This document shows, one piece after another, positions 50,029 to 63,694 of a stretch of 64,000 nt of DNA. Position numbers and translations under genes: made by a program. The notes under the pieces are model-generated. The model worked only from the letters and a program-made list of their open reading frames with translations, was not told the origin of the DNA and made no database searches. Source of the DNA: Dehalococcoidia bacterium (GTDB lineage Bacteria; Chloroflexota; Dehalococcoidia; Tepidiformales; Tepidiformaceae); NCBI GenBank assembly GCA_020847985.1, contig JADLBC010000025.1, positions 24,124 to 88,123 on the forward strand. The letters run 5' to 3'. Each line of letters starts with the position of its first letter. Within the stretch, counting starts at the first letter, position 1.

Positions 50029-50044
<16 letters not shown>
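49535..50044 (+). CDS. MoaD/ThiS-like beta-grasp protein (aa 1-87, ...IIPAIGGG) continued in frame by a truncated class I methyltransferase fragment
   Basis: GGAGGGG lies before the ATG at 49535. The N-part matches the MoaD/CysO pattern (PAPLRDMCGG...DVSIIPAIGGG). The tail carries motif I VLDLGCGRATS and then stops after about 25 more residues. The 3' end overlaps the convergent uvrA-like gene by 16 nt. Confidence 0.6.
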
Positions 50045-52410
<2,366 letters not shown>

Positions 52411-55461: not shown

Positions 55462-56346
55462 TCACGCATCCCAGCGCCGTGTCTCTGGATTCCACGTTCC
55501 TGCTAGCACTCTCCTCTGCAGAACGGGATCAACCACCGCTGCTGCAGCGGCATGCCCGGCGTTCAGGTCGGCGTCCAAACCCACCTCGCCAGCCAGTTGG
55601 CGGTACGGAACGCGCCACTCCGTGGGTGGCGGCGGGAGGTTCGAAGGCAGATCGTGGGTTCCGCGGCCGGCGAAGACCTCTTGGAGATCGACCAAAAGCG
55701 CCGCCGCGTCCAACGAGAACAACTGAGCGATCAGCGCCAGATCGACCAGGTCTTTGGGGCGACTGCTAACTCTGTCCCCTTCATAGCGGCGCGTGTAAGC
55801 GTGGAGCTTCTCAGCGACCTGACGAGTCAATGGAAGCACGGGGACCGGCACCGGTTCGATTCCGGCGAATGCCAGCAGGTCCGGCGTTGTGAGTGTCTCG
55901 GCCTGATTGATGAGACCGTCCCACTCCCCAACGTCCAAGAGAAATGTCTCGAAGAGCCGGCCGGCGAGCGAAGCTTCTACCCGGAACCGGTGGGCGCCGC
56001 CCATGCGGTCAGGGTCAGCAGTCGTCCGTTCCACCCGGAACGAGAAGAAGTCACCCAAGTCCTCGATCGTTACCTCGATCAGCCTCTCGAGCAGTTCATC
56101 CTCCTGAACCTGCCAGGCGAGATCGATGTCGCGAGTGGTGCGTGCCCGATCCGGCATGCGCAGTTGGAGAGCGAACCCGCCCTTGAGCGCCCATTGGCCC
56201 GGCGCGACGCGTAGGAGGCGAGCGAGCAACCGTTCGAATGCAACCTGCTTGCGCAGTCGCGCAAGGAGCGCACCTTCCCGGTGACTGCGATCCTTCAGCC
56301 GATCCTCAAGCGCCCGACGAAACGCGGCGGCAGTCTCGTACCTCAC
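55462..56346 (-). CDS. abiEii: AbiEii/AbiGii-family nucleotidyltransferase toxin (DUF1814)
   Basis: The N-terminus is FERLLARL...WALKGGFALQLR...RTTRDIDL. The start forms a GTGA overlap with the upstream abiEi stop. Confidence 0.85.
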   Translation of the reverse strand: MRYETAAAFRRALEDRLKDRSHREGALLARLRKQVAFERLLARLLRVAPGQWALKGGFALQLRMPDRARTTRDIDLAWQVQEDELLERLIEVTIEDLGDFFSFRVERTTADPDRMGGAHRFRVEASLAGRLFETFLLDVGEWDGLINQAETLTTPDLLAFAGIEPVPVPVLPLTRQVAEKLHAYTRRYEGDRVSSRPKDLVDLALIAQLFSLDAAALLVDLQEVFAGRGTHDLPSNLPPPPTEWRVPYRQLAGEVGLDADLNAGHAAAAAVVDPVLQRRVLAGTWNPETRRWDA

Positions 56347-56945
56347 GCAGGCACTCGCCCGACAGCGCTTTCAATGATTCGGCGAGTACGGGCGGAGCGG
56401 CCTTTCACCATCTCCCGGAGCCGACGAGGTGTCGTCAGACCGCGGTCCACGGCCTGCCGAACAGCAAGCTCTATTTGCTCAGGCGGAGAACCATCTTCCA
56501 GAGCATCGACGAGCGTTCGCTCGGGGCTGGTCACCGGCACGCCGTCAATGGTCCGGAGATCTTCCGTCCCGAGTTGCCCTTCGATTGTGTGTATTCGCAC
56601 GCCCGAACGCGGACGCACGCCACGCTTAGCCCGTGGGATGGAGACGTGAACCGCGGACGGGATCAGGTCGGTGAGTTCGTAGAGCTCGAGCGCGCTCTCG
56701 TGGGAGACAACGGCCCCGGTGGCCTTGAGCGGCAGCCATGCCGCCACAACGTGTTCGTGGGGACTGGAGGGAAAGTGTCTTAGGCGATACAGGCCTCGTC
56801 GGACTCGCTCAAACCGTCCTCCGGGGCGGGCGTGGTAGCGGAGCGTCGTCCGGTCGATGCCCGCATACTCCGCTTGGCCCGCGGTGAAGTAGCCTGCCTG
56901 CTGCTCGGCAATCTCGTAGAGCTGGTCATGCGCCGTGTCCGACAT
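56343..56945 (-). CDS. abiEi: AbiEi-family antitoxin/transcriptional regulator
   Basis: A winged-helix N-domain (GYFTAGQAEYAGIDRTTLRYHARPGGRFERVRRGLYRL) is followed by HESALELY. The ATG at 56945 was checked. Confidence 0.85.
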   Translation of the reverse strand: MSDTAHDQLYEIAEQQAGYFTAGQAEYAGIDRTTLRYHARPGGRFERVRRGLYRLRHFPSSPHEHVVAAWLPLKATGAVVSHESALELYELTDLIPSAVHVSIPRAKRGVRPRSGVRIHTIEGQLGTEDLRTIDGVPVTSPERTLVDALEDGSPPEQIELAVRQAVDRGLTTPRRLREMVKGRSARTRRIIESAVGRVPA

Positions 56946-56954
56946 ACGGGGCAC

Positions 56955-56998
56955 ATGATAGCCCAAACGTCGGACCACTGGGCCTCTCGGGCTAGCAT
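56955..56998. promoter_or_regulatory. imperfect inverted repeat ATGATAGCCC-N24-GGGCTAGCAT just upstream of abiEi (candidate AbiEi operator/promoter)
   Basis: The arms at 56955-56964 and 56989-56998 are complementary at 9 of 10 positions. A TATCAT hexamer on the minus strand lies 12 nt upstream of the abiEi ATG. Confidence 0.35.
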
Positions 56999-57530: not shown

Positions 57531-58091
57531 CTACGGTTGCTCCTCAGGCGTTGAATCGGCGCACTCGCTCCACCAGTTGAAAAGTGGATGGTCGCGCGGC
57601 GGCCGGTAGCGGCTCCGCGTTTCAATGGACCTCAAGACCGCGCTGAGCCTGGGCAGCGCGATTTGCCCGACACGTTGCCACGCGTGAAGTAGTTCCGGCG
57701 TCGACGAGCGTGCGACCGACCGTTCACTGGCGATCCGGCGAGCTTTTCGGTCGTCGGTGGCGACAGCGAGCTGCCGAACCTCCGCAATCGCGATCGCCTC
57801 GGCCTCCCCGTCGTCGACGAGCGCCGCGAGGTCGACGACGAGATCAAGTTCTGTAGCATCAACCGCTGTGACGGCGACGAGGCCTGCAGCCCCGAGCGGA
57901 GAGAGGTCGATGGCTTGGCGTTCGCTCCCTCGCTCAGCGACCTCGATGTAAATGGCCTCGTCGGCGACGGCCGGCGGCACGACGAGCGTCAGCAGCAGAG
58001 TCGACAAAATCTCCTCCGCACAGCCCGAGGCCATGAGATTCATCAGGACATCGGCGTCCGCTACGAGTTCCGTTGGGTCATGGCCGAGTGC
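57531..58091 (-). CDS. PIN-domain (COG2405-like) putative nuclease
   Basis: VADADVLMNL ... VADEA ... DDGEAEAIAIAEVRQLAVATDDRKARRIA matches the acidic PIN pattern. The start is uncertain: TTG 58091 overlaps the upstream stop by 14 nt, and the alternative is the track-ORF start at 58172. Confidence 0.55.
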   Translation of the reverse strand, partial: ALGHDPTELVADADVLMNLMASGCAEEILSTLLLTLVVPPAVADEAIYIEVAERGSERQAIDLSPLGAAGLVAVTAVDATELDLVVDLAALVDDGEAEAIAIAEVRQLAVATDDRKARRIASERSVARSSTPELLHAWQRVGQIALPRLSAVLRSIETRSRYRPPRDHPLFNWWSECADSTPEEQP

Positions 58092-59292
58092 CAACGTGCA
58101 TCGACTCCGACAACGGCGGATGAGTCCCGCTTCCGTCTTGGACGTCTCGGCCCGTGCTCGCCATCCTGTCAACGAGCTCTCGCACCGTCAGTCGGTCTTC
58201 ACCGAGCAGCTCGGCCAGCTCGCGCTCGGTGAGAAGCGCGCGGTCGAACGCTTCGAGCGCAAGAAAGACAAACCGCCTGGGGAACTTCAAAGTGTCCGCT
58301 GGCGGAGCCTCGACACCCAGCAGCCGGCTGGCGGCCTGAATGTTCGCTCCCGAGTGAGTTAGCGCGTCCCAGGTGCCGCTCGAGACAACCCGGAGGCCCT
58401 CCAAGCGCAGCACCAGTGCTTGGAACGAAACCTCGTACTCGTCGGCAATCAGCAGCAGATCCGCCACAGTCACTTGGCGATCGGCGCTTTCCAATTCGCG
58501 AATCCTGCGCTGTAGACCAGCGCTTGGCATCAGGAACGCCGCCGCGAATTGATCCGCGAATCGCTCGTGCTCCGGAATCCGCTGGTATCCAGAAATCCGA
58601 GTGACCTCAGGACGATCCAATCGAGTCAAGAAATGGCCGAACTCGTGTGCAAGCGACCAGCGCTGGCGAACGGCAGGGTGATTCGCATTGATTGCCACGC
58701 ACGGCCCAGCTTCATGCGAGACACCGTAAAGCGCAGCTACACCACCCGGCAGTGGAATGCTGAAGATGCGGAGCCCACCCTCACGTTCGAGGAGTTCCCG
58801 CAGCTTCAGGACAGGGCCGTCACCGGCCGCGAGGCGACGCCGTTCGGCATCTGCAACCATCTCCGCATCCTGCTCTAGCCGCGCCGCTTCATAGCGATAA
58901 TAGGGAACGGCCCCCGGCCGGAGCGGGCTGTCGAGCATCTTCTCCAATCGGAGATAGCTTGCGACCAGCGTCTCAAGGGACGCGACTGCTTGCTCGAGTT
59001 CGGTTCGTTCGGCCAGAGGAGCGTCCGCGGGAAGTCGAAACTGGGCCTGGAGCGAGATAGGTGGCATGGGCTCACGCACGAGCTCCGAAATGCGGCTTCC
59101 GTAGGCTTTCGCGAGGTTCACAAGCAACGCCGAATCGACGCGGCGCTGCCCGGCTTCGATGGCAGCGACCGTCGGTCTCGATACGCCCAGCACCTCCGCG
59201 ATATCTGCCTGCGTTCGCCTATGCAGCTTCCTCAGCGTCTGGAGCCTGCGTCCCAGCTCCGCCTGATCGAATCTGGCCTCTTGCTCGCTCAT
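58078..59292 (-). CDS. fused XRE-type HTH plus ImmA/IrrE-family (COG2856) zinc metallopeptidase
   Basis: The HTH is RRTQADIAEVLGVSRPTVAAIEAGQRR and the metallopeptidase motif is HEFGH. The ATG at 59292 lies 1 nt after the QueC-like stop, with an alternative GTG at 59301. Confidence 0.85.
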   Translation of the reverse strand: MSEQEARFDQAELGRRLQTLRKLHRRTQADIAEVLGVSRPTVAAIEAGQRRVDSALLVNLAKAYGSRISELVREPMPPISLQAQFRLPADAPLAERTELEQAVASLETLVASYLRLEKMLDSPLRPGAVPYYRYEAARLEQDAEMVADAERRRLAAGDGPVLKLRELLEREGGLRIFSIPLPGGVAALYGVSHEAGPCVAINANHPAVRQRWSLAHEFGHFLTRLDRPEVTRISGYQRIPEHERFADQFAAAFLMPSAGLQRRIRELESADRQVTVADLLLIADEYEVSFQALVLRLEGLRVVSSGTWDALTHSGANIQAASRLLGVEAPPADTLKFPRRFVFLALEAFDRALLTERELAELLGEDRLTVRELVDRMASTGRDVQDGSGTHPPLSESMHVGTRP

Positions 59293-59293
59293 C

Positions 59294-60538
59294 TCATCCA
59301 CTCCACCCGAGCCGGCGGGCGAGTTCGCGGTCCGCCGCGATCAAGCTGGCCCACTCCAAACCGTAGCGCCGCAGTACGGCCAGCCGCTCGGCTGCTTCCA
59401 ACGATGGCGGCGAGCCTATGCCGAGTCCGATTTCCGGCCACTTAGCCGTCACTGTCTCGTAGTGCTCGGACGCAGCACGCGACACCAGTTCCCATGCCTG
59501 GAACGCCATCAGAAGCAGATGATCCGGTGGCGTTGCGCACTCGAACGCCGGTTGTCGATAATCGAGACGATCGAACTCCGCGAGACCCGCACTCCTGAGT
59601 GCCTGCTGACGCAAGATGCAAGACCCGCATCGCCCGCACTGTTTGGCCCGCTTATCGCGGAGCGGAAAACCGTCACAGGAGACCGTCCAGGCGATGAATG
59701 GCTTCAGGTCATCCGGGATCCCGGCGACTAGCTCCGCTTTGGTGTAGCCCCGGTACGGGAGGTCGATTGATACCGCGAAGCCCGCGGCGTCGAAGACTTG
59801 CTGAAGCTGTTGAACGACATGGGGATGGGTCGATTTGGTGGCCTGGGCACCCATCTGATGCTCAACGAGGCGCGGGTTGAGCGATCCGTAGCCATTCTCG
59901 AAGATCAGCACCCGGTGCGCCCCGGACCAACTCGCCACAGCAACGGCGACAGCGGAGTAAAGGAAACCGCGCGTTCGCTGGGAGCGCTCCACATCTGGCG
60001 CCTCGATGAGGTTCACTGGGACCGGCAGGTGCACCACACGATCGGGATACAGTTCACCCAGCGCCGATGCCAAATCCCGCTGGATCTTCCCAACCACGGT
60101 GCTGGAGCGCAGGGAGAGGAGTCCGATCCGCCCCGTCGAACGCCCCGCGAGCCAGCGCGCCGCTCCAGCGAACGAATCGAGTCCGCCGGAGAAGAGAGCT
60201 ACTTCATCGATCTGCTGCCCGCGAGCGAACGAGAGCCAAGCCTGCTGCTCTTCAGCCAAGGTCGGACGACCCTCGGCAAACTCCAGACGCCAATGGTCGT
60301 CGGTGAGCACCGCCAGGGCCTGCTCAAGCACTGGCCCGACATGCACCCAAAGGCGGCGAGAGGATATGGGCAAGCAGACATCCATGGGCCGAATCCACTC
60401 TCGCCCGCGGTGCCGCGAGCGGTCGGCCGCGTAGAGCTGCGCCGCGATGGAAACCAAATCGACCACTTGGGCGTCCGGCGCTTCGGACAGCGCCCGCGTC
60501 GCGGAGCCCAGTGAATAGCGTGGAGCAGTGACCTTCAC
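59294..60538 (-). CDS. QueC-like PP-loop ATPase (7-cyano-7-deazaguanine synthase family) with an extra ~100-aa N-terminal region; C-terminus ...RRLGWSG
   Basis: The PP-loop ALFSGGLDSFAG and the QueC-type Zn cluster SC-x13-CGRCGSCILR are present. The GTG at 60538 overlaps the stop of the upstream ORF (GTGA). The 123 upstream codons of the track ORF are Arg/Pro/Gly-rich and not protein-like. Confidence 0.8.
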   Translation of the reverse strand: MKVTAPRYSLGSATRALSEAPDAQVVDLVSIAAQLYAADRSRHRGREWIRPMDVCLPISSRRLWVHVGPVLEQALAVLTDDHWRLEFAEGRPTLAEEQQAWLSFARGQQIDEVALFSGGLDSFAGAARWLAGRSTGRIGLLSLRSSTVVGKIQRDLASALGELYPDRVVHLPVPVNLIEAPDVERSQRTRGFLYSAVAVAVASWSGAHRVLIFENGYGSLNPRLVEHQMGAQATKSTHPHVVQQLQQVFDAAGFAVSIDLPYRGYTKAELVAGIPDDLKPFIAWTVSCDGFPLRDKRAKQCGRCGSCILRQQALRSAGLAEFDRLDYRQPAFECATPPDHLLLMAFQAWELVSRAASEHYETVTAKWPEIGLGIGSPPSLEAAERLAVLRRYGLEWASLIAADRELARRLGWSG

Positions 60539-61089
60539 CGGTGGCTCTCTTGTGTAAGCGATACGCTTATCGCAGTTCCGAGCGTCTCCTCCGCCGACAA
60601 GCGCGTGCGACCTCGGGCTCTTGGCACCTTGCCCTGCATCTGTTGCGTGAAGAACCGATCTAGGCTGGGGACCAGTTGGGCGAGGAGCAGGTCCTCTTGG
60701 CGCCCCGTTGCTACGATGCCTCTCCGCCGTAGGCTGTCGGTGCGGGCGGGTCCAAGGATCCCCTCTGCTAGGCGTCGGCGCACATCGGTCCGCCACCGCT
60801 CGCGGTCTGCTGTCGCAGGAGGATCCTCCCGGAGCGACCGGGCGACCGCACGCTCCGCCGCTCGTACGGTCGCGTCCGACACACCCTGGCTGCCAAACAG
60901 TCGGCACGCGGGCGCCCAGTAGTGGCGCGGCAAGTTGGGGAGCACGTCTCGATCTGGCATCATTCTGACCATGTCAGATGTTCTTGGCATGATGGTGGAC
61001 TTCATCGCGAGCATTGTCAACAGCCCGGTCGAGCCAATGATGAGTGCTGCCGGCCGGCCATGCAGCCGCTGTGGCACAAACGAAGCCAT
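60535..61089 (-). CDS. hypothetical protein translationally coupled to the QueC-like gene
   Basis: This frame is protein-like (…VSDATVRAAERAVARSLRED…DLLLAQLVPSLDRFFTQQMQG…), whereas the overlapping QueC-frame extension is not. Its TGA overlaps the QueC-like GTG. The start is uncertain: ATG 61089 or internal ATGs at 60972, 60963 or 60960. I recognise no family. Confidence 0.45.
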   Translation of the reverse strand: MASFVPQRLHGRPAALIIGSTGLLTMLAMKSTIMPRTSDMVRMMPDRDVLPNLPRHYWAPACRLFGSQGVSDATVRAAERAVARSLREDPPATADRERWRTDVRRRLAEGILGPARTDSLRRRGIVATGRQEDLLLAQLVPSLDRFFTQQMQGKVPRARGRTRLSAEETLGTAISVSLTQESHR

Positions 61090-61246
61090 GCCGCAGTCCG
61101 GCAGATGCGGGGCGGCTATCGTTATGGACTGGTCATCGCGACCGCACCGTTCAAGGTTTCCGCCTCCGGTCCGGGCGCACCGACGGGCTCGACGACGCGA
61201 AGGGCCCCCGGGGCTTTCACCGACGTCCGGTGCCTGCGAGGAGAAG

Positions 61247-61263
61247 GCGACAGCGTCTGTCGC
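61247..61263. promoter_or_regulatory. 7-bp palindrome GCGACAG-CGT-CTGTCGC in the divergent control region
   Basis: Read directly. It sits 11 nt upstream of the putative -35 of the plus-strand operon. Confidence 0.35.
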
Positions 61264-61273
61264 ACATATGTTC

Positions 61274-61303
61274 TTGACTAGGTTGCAGCCGTGGCTCTAC
61301 CGT
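61274..61303 (+). promoter_or_regulatory. candidate sigma-70-type promoter TTGACT-N18-TACCGT for the micro-ORF/E2-E1/JAB operon
   Basis: The hexamers were read directly. They lie about 40 nt upstream of the micro-ORF ATG. Confidence 0.3.
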
Positions 61304-61344
61304 GAAATGAAATTAGCAACGCGCATAAGCGCTTGGAGGTTCAG

Positions 61345-61464
61345 ATGGCTGACACAGAACGGGAGCGGCCTGATCATCCGCCCCACCCTGAGCATCCTCC
61401 TCATCCGCCTCATCCGGAGCCGGGTCGCAAGCCGCCGCGGCCTCCTGGTCGCCCGTACGGATAG
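61345..61464 (+). CDS. 39-codon His/Pro-repeat micro-ORF ending in Gly (MADTERERPDHPPHPEHPPHPPHPEPGRKPPRPPGRPYG)
   Basis: GGAGG at 61335-61339 lies 5 nt before the ATG at 61345. Five tandem 9-nt units encode HP[PE] at 61375-61419. The TAG at 61462-61464 lies 2 nt before the GTG of the E2-E1 gene. It is below the ORF-track size cutoff. Confidence 0.4.
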   Translation: MADTERERPDHPPHPEHPPHPPHPEPGRKPPRPPGRPYG

Positions 61465-61466
61465 CT

Positions 61467-63212
61467 GTGCGCACGCCGTGGTTCGAGCGCGACGCGTCGC
61501 TCCTCGACCGAGAACTCACCGCCATTAGTAATGCGGGGTTCGAGTTCGCCCTGGAAGCTGCGCCGCGAGCCCTGGGCTTCATCGTTCTGAGGGGCAGGCT
61601 CCATGTTGGCTCAGAGCGGTTCGAGTCAGAGCTGCTGTACCCGGCGTCGTTCCCGTTCGGACGGCCAGAAGTCCGCGTGAACCTGAGACTTCCGCGGCAC
61701 TCATCGCCCTACGATCGAGTTCTGTGCCTCTGGCCGGGTGCGGCTGAAGACTGGGACTGGAACGAGAACGAAGGTCAGCAAGGCGCCTACACACTTGAGC
61801 GTGCCGTGGCGCTGCTCAGCATTCGAGGTGACGTAGACGAACTCCGCCGCCAGTCGGAGCGAAGCCCAGACCGCCAAAGCCGCTACTTGTTCGCGCCCGA
61901 CTCGGGGGCGCTCCTGATCCCGGCCGCACTTGATGGAGATGTGCCCTCAGACTCGTGGGGCCGGGCCGAGATAACCATGCTCGGCGCCAACACGGCCCGA
62001 ATTGGCGTGCTCACACGACTTGAGATCTTCGCGCGCGACGGTTCGACCTTGGGGGATCGTACGGCCGAGCCGGAAATCGCGGCAGCCCTAGTCCGGCCAG
62101 ATGCCCTGAAAGTCAGCGCCCGATGGGTGAAGCTGAAGCGCTATCCGCCTTTCAAGAACACGCGCGACGAATTCGAATCGCATTTTCCAGATTGGGTCAA
62201 CCAGCAGCTCCCGGCGACCGGCAAGGTCGCCCTCTCAGCCAATGCCCAAATCCGGATGCTCGGGGCAGCATTCCCGGAGGAGTGGCAGTGGAGTAAAGAG
62301 TCCGACGAGCTCGAATTCCGCGACGAGTGGGTGTTCGTCCTCGAATCGAGACAACCTGGAGGGCTGAGGAGGCATACCTACCGGCCGTTTCGCCTGGGGA
62401 AGGAGCACACGTTCGCGCGCAACCCTTCGCTGGCCGCACTGGACTCCAAGCGGGTAACGGTCGTGGGCCTTGGAGCACTCGGGTCGCCGATTGCACTCGG
62501 ACTAGCCCGTGCTGGCGTCGGGGCTCTCGTGCTGTTGGACCACGACATCGTCGAAACGGGAAATGCGCAGCGCGGTGCCTTCGATATCCTCGCTGCTGGG
62601 ACGCTCAAAACCGAGGAGATGAGGCGCCGGATCTTGTCGGTCAACCCGTACGCGCAGATTTCGATCGTCAACGGGCCTTGGGGTGGCATCCACACCGATG
62701 GATCTACGGTGGAAGACCTCGATGAGGTGTGGAAGATCGTGAGTTCGAGCGACCTCATCGTCGCTGCCGTTGCGAGCTACGAAACATCGCTAGATTTGCA
62801 GATGGTCGCGATTGAGCAGCGGATCCCACTTCTCTACACCGATGTAGTGCAGGGAGCATGGGGAGGGCGAGCGTTCTTGTATCGTCCAGGCCTGACAGGC
62901 TGTCTCGGTTGCCTCTACGCGCTACTGGCGACCACCCCGGAAATGTCTCCTGTCGCTAGCCCGGAGCCCGAGGTCCTGCCGGCGAACTGCGTTGCGCCGA
63001 CCTTCACCGGGAGCGGATTCGACATTGAGTCGGTGGCGACCATCGCCGTGAGACTCGCCGTCCAGGCGCTAGTCGCGCGCGACGACGGCTACCCCGCCGA
63101 GACCGCGAACTACGTCGTGTACCAGGCTGTCGGCACGCCAGACGCACCTGAGATCAGGAACTGGTCCGTCGTGCCCCGCCCTGAATGCGCCGTGTGTGCT
63201 GCCCACCCATGA
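61467..63212 (+). CDS. Cap2-like fusion protein: N-terminal E2 (UBC-like) domain plus C-terminal E1 (ThiF/MoeB-type adenylation) domain
   Basis: The E2 core is LYPASFPFGRPEVRV...HSSPYDRVLC(87)LW...W...LERAVALLS. The E1 part has RVTVVGLGALGSPIALGLARAG, LLDHD and NAQR. It also has CxxC pairs at 479/482 and 574/577, plus Cys508. Confidence 0.85.
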   Translation: MRTPWFERDASLLDRELTAISNAGFEFALEAAPRALGFIVLRGRLHVGSERFESELLYPASFPFGRPEVRVNLRLPRHSSPYDRVLCLWPGAAEDWDWNENEGQQGAYTLERAVALLSIRGDVDELRRQSERSPDRQSRYLFAPDSGALLIPAALDGDVPSDSWGRAEITMLGANTARIGVLTRLEIFARDGSTLGDRTAEPEIAAALVRPDALKVSARWVKLKRYPPFKNTRDEFESHFPDWVNQQLPATGKVALSANAQIRMLGAAFPEEWQWSKESDELEFRDEWVFVLESRQPGGLRRHTYRPFRLGKEHTFARNPSLAALDSKRVTVVGLGALGSPIALGLARAGVGALVLLDHDIVETGNAQRGAFDILAAGTLKTEEMRRRILSVNPYAQISIVNGPWGGIHTDGSTVEDLDEVWKIVSSSDLIVAAVASYETSLDLQMVAIEQRIPLLYTDVVQGAWGGRAFLYRPGLTGCLGCLYALLATTPEMSPVASPEPEVLPANCVAPTFTGSGFDIESVATIAVRLAVQALVARDDGYPAETANYVVYQAVGTPDAPEIRNWSVVPRPECAVCAAHP

Positions 63213-63694
63213 GCCGCCTATTCGTCGTCCGGGCCGTTGTTGAAGCCATCGAGGAGGAAGCAAAGCGCTCCAGATGGACCGAGACTGGCGGCGTGCTCGT
63301 CGGTTATTGGTCCTCGGACGATGACTTGGTCGTGGTTGACGCGGTGGTGGCTTCCCGTCGTTCGCGGCGATCGCCTAGCGGCTTCGAGTCCTCTGTTCCC
63401 GATGACTGGGCAACGATTGAGGAAGTGGTGAGGGCAAGCTCGGGCGCGTTCACTTACATAGGCGACTGGCACAGCCATCCCTTGGGCGGGTGCCGCCCGA
63501 GTCGTCGGGATTTCGAAACGACGGTGAAGGTCTCTCGGTCACGCGACGCGGACACCCAGAGGCCGTTGCTTTGGATAGCGGCGCGCCAACGCCCGCTCGT
63601 CGGAGATATCGAACACGGGGCATTCTTGCTCCTCGGGCCCGACAAGCTCACTCAGATGCGCATCAGGACGTTGGACTCCGTGCCCGGCGCGTAG
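63209..63694 (+). CDS. Cap3-like JAB/JAMM (MPN+) metalloisopeptidase
   Basis: ETGGVLVG ... GDWHSHPLGGCRPSRRD gives the E, HxH, S and D JAMM motif. The start forms an ATGA overlap with the E2-E1 stop. Confidence 0.85.
   Translation: MSRLFVVRAVVEAIEEEAKRSRWTETGGVLVGYWSSDDDLVVVDAVVASRRSRRSPSGFESSVPDDWATIEEVVRASSGAFTYIGDWHSHPLGGCRPSRRDFETTVKVSRSRDADTQRPLLWIAARQRPLVGDIEHGAFLLLGPDKLTQMRIRTLDSVPGA

Follow-up and report, generated by a model that had tools for sequence, protein, structure and literature searches.

The window analyzed here is a stretch of 64,000 nucleotides (nt) from a Dehalococcoidia bacterium of the Chloroflexota (contig JADLBC010000025.1, positions 24,124 to 88,123 of the forward strand). 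Toward its 3' end it carries a micro open reading frame (ORF) of 39 amino acids (aa) directly upstream of a Cap2-like gene in which an E2 and an E1 domain are fused, followed in turn by a gene for a Cap3-like JAB peptidase. The genes and the control region before them are listed below; the small peptide is proposed to be a substrate of the enzyme encoded next to it.

61236 to 61344, plus strand: conserved upstream control region with a palindrome, a -35-like element and a ribosome-binding site, recognized by homology to the related loci L002 and L009.
61345 to 61464, plus strand: micro-ORF encoding 39 aa, MADTERERPDHPPHPEHPPHPPHPEPGRKPPRPPGRPYG, a putative peptide modifier that E1 would use as substrate.
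61375 to 61419, plus strand: five units of 9 nt that code for HPP-HPE-HPP-HPP-HPE and form a His-Pro spacer of variable length, from the sequence and repeat finding.
61450 to 61461, plus strand: C-terminal RPYG, the proposed adenylation and conjugation end, an end motif common to 13 lineages.
61467 to 63212, plus strand: Cap2-like E2-E1 fusion of 581 aa (Pfam, PADLOC, AlphaFold, Foldseek).
63209 to 63694, plus strand: Cap3-like JAB/JAMM metallopeptidase of 161 aa, whose start overlaps the E2-E1 stop (ATGA).

The micro-ORF has the features that an earlier note on this DNA ascribed to it. A strong ribosome-binding site, GGAGG (61335-61339), is separated by a 5-nt spacer (TTCAG) from the ATG at 61345, and the 39 codons end at the stop TAG (61462-61464). 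Residues 11-25 are the five His-Pro units, and the tail PGRKPPRPPGRPYG runs up to the stop; in the peptide's tail all K and R residues other than R28 stand directly before a Pro. In the DNA this repeat is degenerate, with 2.7 copies of a 9-nt unit found at 61393-61416 by Tandem Repeats Finder. Two nucleotides (CT) lie between the stop and the GTG (61467) of the E2-E1 gene, which lacks a strong ribosome-binding site. The micro-ORF peptides match no model of Pfam, NCBIfam or PADLOC. Because the window peptide is 39 aa long, contains 38% Pro and is modeled by AlphaFold without secondary structure (pTM 0.25), it cannot be a beta-grasp ubiquitin-like (Ubl) protein.

The E2-E1 protein matches the ThiF domain of Pfam (1.4e-27) and the 'E1-E2' models of PADLOC (1.7e-32), and consists of an E2 domain at the N-terminus, a linker domain and, at the C-terminus, a ThiF/E1 domain for adenylation. 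Its AlphaFold model (pLDDT 87.2, pTM 0.84) has as best Foldseek match in the PDB the E. cloacae Cap2 structure 7TO3, over the full length (E = 1e-22, 642 aligned columns). Residues invariant in 25 homologues are His78 and Cys87 in the E2 part and G334xG336xxG339, R369, K381, the Zn cysteines 479/482/574/577 and Cys508 in the E1 part. Cys508 would lie in the presumed crossover loop, and we infer that it is the E1 catalytic cysteine because its position follows the first CxxC. The JAB protein (Prok-JAB of Pfam, 2.3e-11; JAB of PADLOC, 2e-21) contains the JAMM motif HSHPLGGCRPSRRD with an intact HSHPx7SxxD. Both enzymes look active.

Evidence that the micro-ORF is a coding gene comes from three near-identical loci (L002, L003 and L009, from metagenomes and one metagenome-assembled genome (MAG) assembly) whose enzyme is 91% identical to that of the window. 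Between the window and L009 the micro-ORF differs at 9 nucleotides, 8 of them at codon position 3. Seven of the differences are synonymous and the other two are conservative (D3E and R6Q); read in either of the other frames, none would be synonymous. Only a single silent change falls within the last 14 codons. The His-Pro units number six in L002 and L003 (an additional HPE, a 9-nt in-frame indel) and five in L009. This substitution pattern indicates purifying selection and, on the sequence evidence, the micro-ORF is a real gene. A 197-aa ORF on the same strand but in another frame (60935-61528) overlaps both the micro-ORF and the E2-E1 start and has a higher GC content at third codon positions (GC3). 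It was rejected as a true gene and is held to be spurious because every difference from L009 alters an amino acid in its frame; it could mislead gene callers. In another locus, L007 (1-1700), homology to the window starts only at E2-E1 residue 13, with unrelated coding sequence and no micro-ORF upstream; this is a chimeric assembly or a recombination breakpoint.

Homology of the window to L002 and L009 starts exactly at 61236, 109 nt 5' of the micro-ORF ATG, and with L002 it runs beyond the JAB gene up to the window end. The upstream region holds a palindrome, ACATATGT (61264-61271), and a -35-like TTGACT (61274-61279), and its block TGTCGCACATATGTTCTTGACTA is unchanged in L002, L003 and L009. 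A simple sigma-70 scan called no promoter in 61236-61344, so that a promoter function of this region is only presumed. The block TGTCGCACATATGTTCTTGACT (61258-61279), which holds the palindrome beside TTGACT, is identical in the same three loci and may be an operator for a helix-turn-helix (HTH) regulator. A structured RNA or riboswitch was considered for the micro-ORF region and rejected: no Rfam family matches, and RNA folding is no better than that of shuffled sequences (minimum free energy z = +0.67).

More distant relatives were sought in several collections. A word-indexed protein search returned only 5, and a rerun with profiles added none; 490 proteins at E <= 1e-30 came from a profile search run exhaustively over 1.84 billion representatives. 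The contexts examined were those of the five nearest hits placed on contigs (P0121-P0124 and P0126), of P0003 and of the hits at ranks 21, 68 and 132, and three complete plasmids (Hymenobacter, Arthrobacter, Sinorhizobium) were added by tblastn. Genome and metagenome scans recovered only the near-identical loci plus unrelated ThiF and CBASS genes. Scans of viral contigs and tblastn against phages yielded nothing, and no phage record with an E2-E1 enzyme was found. Together with the window group, the lineages with a peptide gene are as follows; the gene tables of the Arthrobacter FB24 and pNGR234a plasmids were those of PLSDB and are incomplete.

L004, metagenome: peptide end …RPPKPPDKPFG-ILTSA.
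L012, metagenome: peptide end …RPPKPPGRRFG.
L013, metagenome: peptide end …GGRTYAYG-A.
L015, metagenome: peptide end …PPKRPQPVG.
L016, metagenome: peptide MADTEKAKQGG…DKKKKYA.
L017, metagenome: peptide …HPEHPQHP…RPRRYG-RARL.
L018, plasmid of Hymenobacter sp. NBH84: WP_185284582.1, annotated 'hypothetical', peptide end …KDRPVG-QQ.
L019, plasmid 1 of Arthrobacter sp. FB24: peptide MAGKPENPEHPQHPEHPEHPQHPEHPEHP…GPRPVG, missing from the gene table provided.
L020, metagenome: peptide end …PPGHREVG.
L021, metagenome: peptide …KPDHPEHPDPPDHPPHPPHPP…DDRPVG.
L022, metagenome: peptide end …KKDRPVG.
L023, pNGR234a of Sinorhizobium fredii NGR234: peptide end …SHPPSHRPVG, missing from the gene table provided.

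The small ORF is present in all 13 lineages, whose enzymes are only 24-44% identical and which come from four phyla, with a Myxococcales MAG among the sources. It encodes 39-59 aa, charged and mostly rich in Pro, and in every case it ends by overlapping the E2-E1 start or no more than 31 nt before it. A JAB gene with an intact JAMM motif lies directly downstream of E2-E1 at 13 of 14 loci, representing 12 of the 13 lineages. The conservation that the earlier note had left to be looked for is thus found: a Gly-terminated (once Ala-terminated) small ORF, rich in Pro and His in most cases, stands immediately upstream of E2-E1 in members of four phyla whose enzymes share as little as 24% identity. 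Flanking genes are different at every locus, and the only recurrent ones are those for the peptide, E2-E1 and JAB; a self-contained module of these three genes is the best explanation.

What is conserved in the peptide is mainly its end. The C-termini are RPYG, RRFG, RPVG (four times), QPVG, EVG and KKYA, and those with an extension are KPFG-ILTSA, RRYG-RARL, RPVG-QQ and YAYG-A. All 13 therefore contain [Y/F/V]-Gly (once Tyr-Ala), which closes the peptide in most and stands 1-5 residues before its end in the four extended lineages; the terminal or near-terminal residue is Gly in 12 and Ala in one. An acidic N-terminus is also conserved (MADTE is common to the window and L016), as is a basic stretch that contains Pro. 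HP[EPQ] repeats recur in L013, L017, L019, L021 and L023. Proline content is not conserved: L016 is rich in Lys and Asp with one Pro-Pro, L017 has no Pro-Pro, and the maximum is 8. The earlier note's idea of a disordered, Gly-terminated 'Ubl' gains comparative support from this, with the C-terminal [Y/F/V]-Gly as the conserved part and not the proline content.

In a leave-one-out hidden Markov model (HMM) test against 300 composition-matched shuffles, 9 of the 13 peptides beat all shuffles (z = 4.5-10.8), that of the window with z = 7.2. The family therefore shares residue order, not composition alone. In a crude neighbor-joining tree, the 13 peptide-linked enzymes span a clade that comprises 143 of the 151 sequences, with the three controls outside it. 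These control loci have no small ORF; the slot that it occupies is taken by a CD-NTase in two type II CBASS loci (L005 and L011) and by a gene of the MBL fold in the third (L006). Ten of the peptides were looked up in a collection of 15 billion proteins, and none is present there.

The closest known counterpart of the module is type II CBASS. The two share the E2-linker-E1 architecture and fold, a JAB gene directly downstream, and a substrate gene directly upstream whose product has a disordered tail in which the last residue is Gly or Ala and the one before it hydrophobic or aromatic. In 2023 Ledvina et al. and Jenson et al. reportedly described Cap2 and Cap3 acting on the C-terminus of the CD-NTase. 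The extended, disordered C-terminus of type II CD-NTases enters the E1 site of Cap2 and is adenylated; that of E. cloacae CdnD, KPAEPQKTGRFA (…GRFA), has been located in this site, and Cap3 cleaves C-terminal fusions at the CD-NTase end (10.1101/2022.03.31.486616). The CD-NTase tails of the CBASS controls examined here are PRFA and TRFA, and the peptide tail resembles the kind that Cap2 adenylates.

The module also differs from CBASS. The substrate here would be a free-standing peptide of 39-59 aa with its own conserved N-terminus and His-Pro repeats, and the enzymes form a clade apart from the CBASS controls. There is no CD-NTase, cyclic-nucleotide effector or signaling: SMODS/CD-NTase models matched none of the ORFs tested in about 45-64 kb of the window and none of the called genes of related loci, and no SAVED, TIR, phospholipase, nuclease or transmembrane effector is conserved beside the module at the loci examined. 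The window ends 306 nt after JAB; L002 has no CD-NTase in the 8.4 kb downstream. With neither a CD-NTase nor an effector, the module does not belong to CBASS.

The reading that we prefer, with a probability of about 0.6, is that the micro-ORF product is a fold-less substrate or modifier of E2-E1, attached through its terminal Gly. By analogy with Cap2, the 39-aa Pro/His-rich peptide would be the dedicated substrate of the Cap2-like enzyme. The ThiF/E1 domain would bind the extended peptide tail and adenylate the terminal Gly, as Cap2 does with its CD-NTase; the peptide thioester would pass to E1 Cys508, next to E2 Cys87, and from there to a target amine, so that the peptide would act as a ubiquitin-like modifier without the beta-grasp fold. 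JAB would trim the 1-5 residue C-terminal extensions found in some members, exposing Gly, and may also reverse conjugation. The close spacing of stop and start would couple translation of enzyme and peptide. Tagging itself could be the effector in a conflict with phages or mobile elements, as in Bil.

Other systems offer partial parallels. Bil (BilABCD) and Bub are likewise stand-alone modules of a modifier, an E1, an E2 and a deconjugating peptidase. In these, tagging is itself the defense, with a phage tail protein as one example of a target, and the modifier precursor is trimmed to a C-terminal Gly. However, they use beta-grasp Ubl modifiers with a separate E1 and E2 of canonical type, whereas the modifier here would be fold-less and the enzyme is a fusion of the Cap2 type. 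Pup of the Actinobacteria is also a small, intrinsically disordered, ribosomally made modifier that is attached to lysines. Its C-terminus is GGQ or GGE, the glutamine-synthetase-like PafA/Dop ligate it by way of a Glu side chain, and it feeds the proteasome; here a C-terminal Gly would instead be passed on as an E1/E2 thioester, with a JAB peptidase, and there are no proteasome genes. PafA/Dop models matched none of the neighbors tested, and the peptides end in [Y/F/V]-G or YA rather than GGQ or GGE.

In the microcin C system (MccA/MccB), and in PaaA, an E1-like adenylating enzyme acts on a tiny substrate peptide that is encoded immediately upstream in one operon, an arrangement much like that of the window. 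MccB differs in that it works on a C-terminal Asn to make a peptidyl-nucleotide antibiotic, has a peptide clamp as well as export and immunity partners, and lacks an E2 domain and a JAB. The window peptide ends in Gly and its enzyme carries an E2 domain in place of the clamp; no transporter or immunity gene is conserved at the loci examined. The 6A-MBL type (operon type 6a of Iyer et al. 2006) is, like the module, a relative of Cap2/Cap3 without CD-NTase and with a presumed partner upstream of E2-E1 (L006), but there the partner is no peptide and consists of an MBL-fold enzyme of 381 aa. Against NF058523 (6A-MBL, NCBIfam) the window proteins score 50.1 and 86.6 bits with a cut-off of 320, and there is no MBL gene. 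The peptide module also matches no type in the 2006 classification of E1/E2/JAB operons by Iyer et al., which has five (6a-6e). A description of a peptide substrate for Cap2-like enzymes was not found in the full-text literature searched, beyond which such a paper may exist.

The module of the window sits in a defense island. The neighboring genes, all on the minus strand, include the following.

50029-52410, minus strand: ABC-ATPase/STAND-like protein of 793 aa, a defense-type gene.
55462-56346, minus strand: AbiEii, a defense-type gene.
56343-56978, minus strand: AbiEi, a defense-type gene.
58078-59301, minus strand: fused HTH and M78 peptidase gene, RmrA- and CapH/CapP-like.
59294-60907, minus strand: QatC-like gene of the QueC family (PADLOC QatC, 5e-52; NCBIfam QatC, 197 bits with a cut-off of 280).

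The QatC-like gene has about 137 additional N-terminal residues and an 8-nt overlap with the HTH-M78 gene. Its context is atypical, with no QatA, QatB or QatD seen, and the pair is not shared with L002, which has a different gene upstream of the module. These divergent genes were considered as parts of the module and rejected: they are absent from all related loci, and the homology with L002 begins at 61236. On the far side, L002 (2988-11409) carries on the minus strand after JAB two proteins of about 350 aa, a ResIII/Helicase_C protein and DUF6094.

Across the loci, the neighbors are of the kind usual for defense islands and mobile DNA. M78 or HTH regulators adjoin the module in L013, L016 and L017, and toxin-antitoxin pairs in L004 and L023; L017 has a Z1/DUF4420/Vsr cluster and L018 an integrase. 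A role in phage or mobile-element conflict is suggested because of these defense islands, toxin-antitoxin neighbors, plasmids and CapH/CapP-like regulators. In L018 (1-3500) and L019 (900-8800) the module is surrounded by genes for resistance to copper and cadmium, among them those for DUF305, copper-binding proteins, an HMA-domain protein and a cadmium transporter. Several of the peptides have HPE/HPQ repeats, and His-rich repeats could bind metal; the metal genes around these two are perhaps a coincidence of plasmid cargo.

Several points weigh against a peptide modifier. The lineages inspected are 13 out of at least 143 clusters, and 4 of the 13 peptides are only weakly above the shuffles in the leave-one-out test (z = 1.3-2.5). 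The end is not uniform, with one Ala, four extended members and either Val or an aromatic residue before the Gly. L015 (6767-7131) has the micro-ORF and E2-E1 with no JAB downstream; an arylsulfotransferase-like gene follows after a 364-nt gap. Cap2 takes hold of the globular body of its CD-NTase as well as the tail; a 39-aa peptide, with a tail only, does not account for affinity and specificity. No target or effector can be named. Everything beyond a conserved coding gene with a conserved end rests on analogy.

The micro-ORF could instead be a translational leader, in which a Pro-rich ORF stalls ribosomes when EF-P is limiting or translation is stressed and so sets the level of E2-E1 and JAB, the peptide itself having no function. 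Stop and start are 2 nt apart or overlap at most loci, the E2-E1 gene has no strong site for ribosomes, and most members contain several PPG, PPD or PPP motifs, whose dependence on EF-P is established. However, L017 and L016, with zero and one Pro-Pro respectively, retain the ORF with its coupling and an end in Tyr-Gly or Tyr-Ala. What is conserved is the C-terminal [Y/F/V]-Gly and the acidic N-terminus rather than an arrest motif whose distance to the stop is constant, and residues after the Gly would make no sense in a stalling peptide. The RNA is no more structured than shuffles and belongs to no Rfam family. The stalling leader that the earlier note had offered as its second possibility is therefore unsupported as a conserved function, since one member is free of Pro-Pro and another has a single one, and we regard it as decidedly unlikely; stalling is possible as a side effect in the Pro-rich members. 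A likeness to proline-rich ribosome-binding antimicrobial peptides was also considered and set aside; the same two members argue against an essential Pro content. It is very improbable that the micro-ORF is the 3' leftover of a deleted CD-NTase gene or a spurious ORF of GC-rich DNA. Its tail is like those of CD-NTases, ORFs of at least 30 aa are plentiful (116 within 9 kb), and the overlapping 197-aa ORF has the higher GC3. Yet the micro-ORF has its own ribosome-binding site and ATG, carries the signature of purifying selection and is conserved over four phyla with motifs at both ends, and the differences in the overlapping ORF are all non-synonymous. Such an origin is already largely refuted by the substitution pattern, the conserved ends and the HMM test.

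Two further explanations accept the peptide as a functional product and give it another job. As a pseudo-substrate or regulator it would occupy or prime the E1 site or become attached only to the enzyme itself and so gate E2-E1, the real substrate (a CD-NTase or another Gly-terminated protein) being supplied in trans. The likeness to CD-NTase tails fits this, as do the other defense genes adjoining the window module and the self-conjugation of Cap2 in vitro (10.1101/2022.03.31.486616). It is unlikely, the least so of these alternatives: the flanks differ at all loci with no recurrent partner, homology between the window and L002 begins merely 109 nt upstream of the micro-ORF, and a JAB that trims or deconjugates is kept in 12 of the 13 lineages. 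Alternatively, the product may be a modified peptide or a lipopeptide and not a protein conjugate at all. E1 might adenylate the peptide as MccB does MccA, or E2 might transfer it to a lipid or small molecule in the manner of Atg7/Atg3 and Atg8-PE. Short ribosomal peptides are known substrates of some ThiF-family enzymes, MccB and PaaA are among the sequence and structure matches, and Cap2 is structurally closest to Atg7, Atg3 and Atg10 (10.1101/2022.03.31.486616). This seems quite unlikely, given that the enzyme has no N-terminal peptide clamp of the MccB type, that export, immunity and tailoring genes are not conserved nearby, and that the conserved E2 cysteine and the deconjugating JAB fit reversible protein conjugation.

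What conjugation of the E1/E2 type moves is, as far as we are aware, a beta-grasp protein or else, in type II CBASS, an entire enzyme by its tail. A Cap2/Cap3-type conjugation whose dedicated substrate is a fold-less peptide has the support of comparative genomics but is not proven. The broader picture, to be taken as tentative and at somewhat less than even odds, is of a widespread unannotated system in which a fold-less, Pro/His-rich peptide of about 40-60 residues, made on ribosomes and activated by a Cap2-like E2-E1 at its terminal Gly, replaces ubiquitin and tags phage or host proteins or, as with Atg8, a lipid; JAB would trim and remove it, and tagging would be the effector of immunity or conflict. 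If the peptide modifier is real, the beta-grasp fold would be dispensable for E1/E2 chemistry, and the module, at about 2.4 kb, would be a minimal, compact tagging system that could be used as a tool. The peptide family is invisible to annotation, and the module can be tested directly in cultured strains. It would also represent a new family of probable defense or mobile-element conflict modules, and the finding bears on substrate recognition by Cap2 and on how the Atg7/Atg3-like branch of the ubiquitin system arose.

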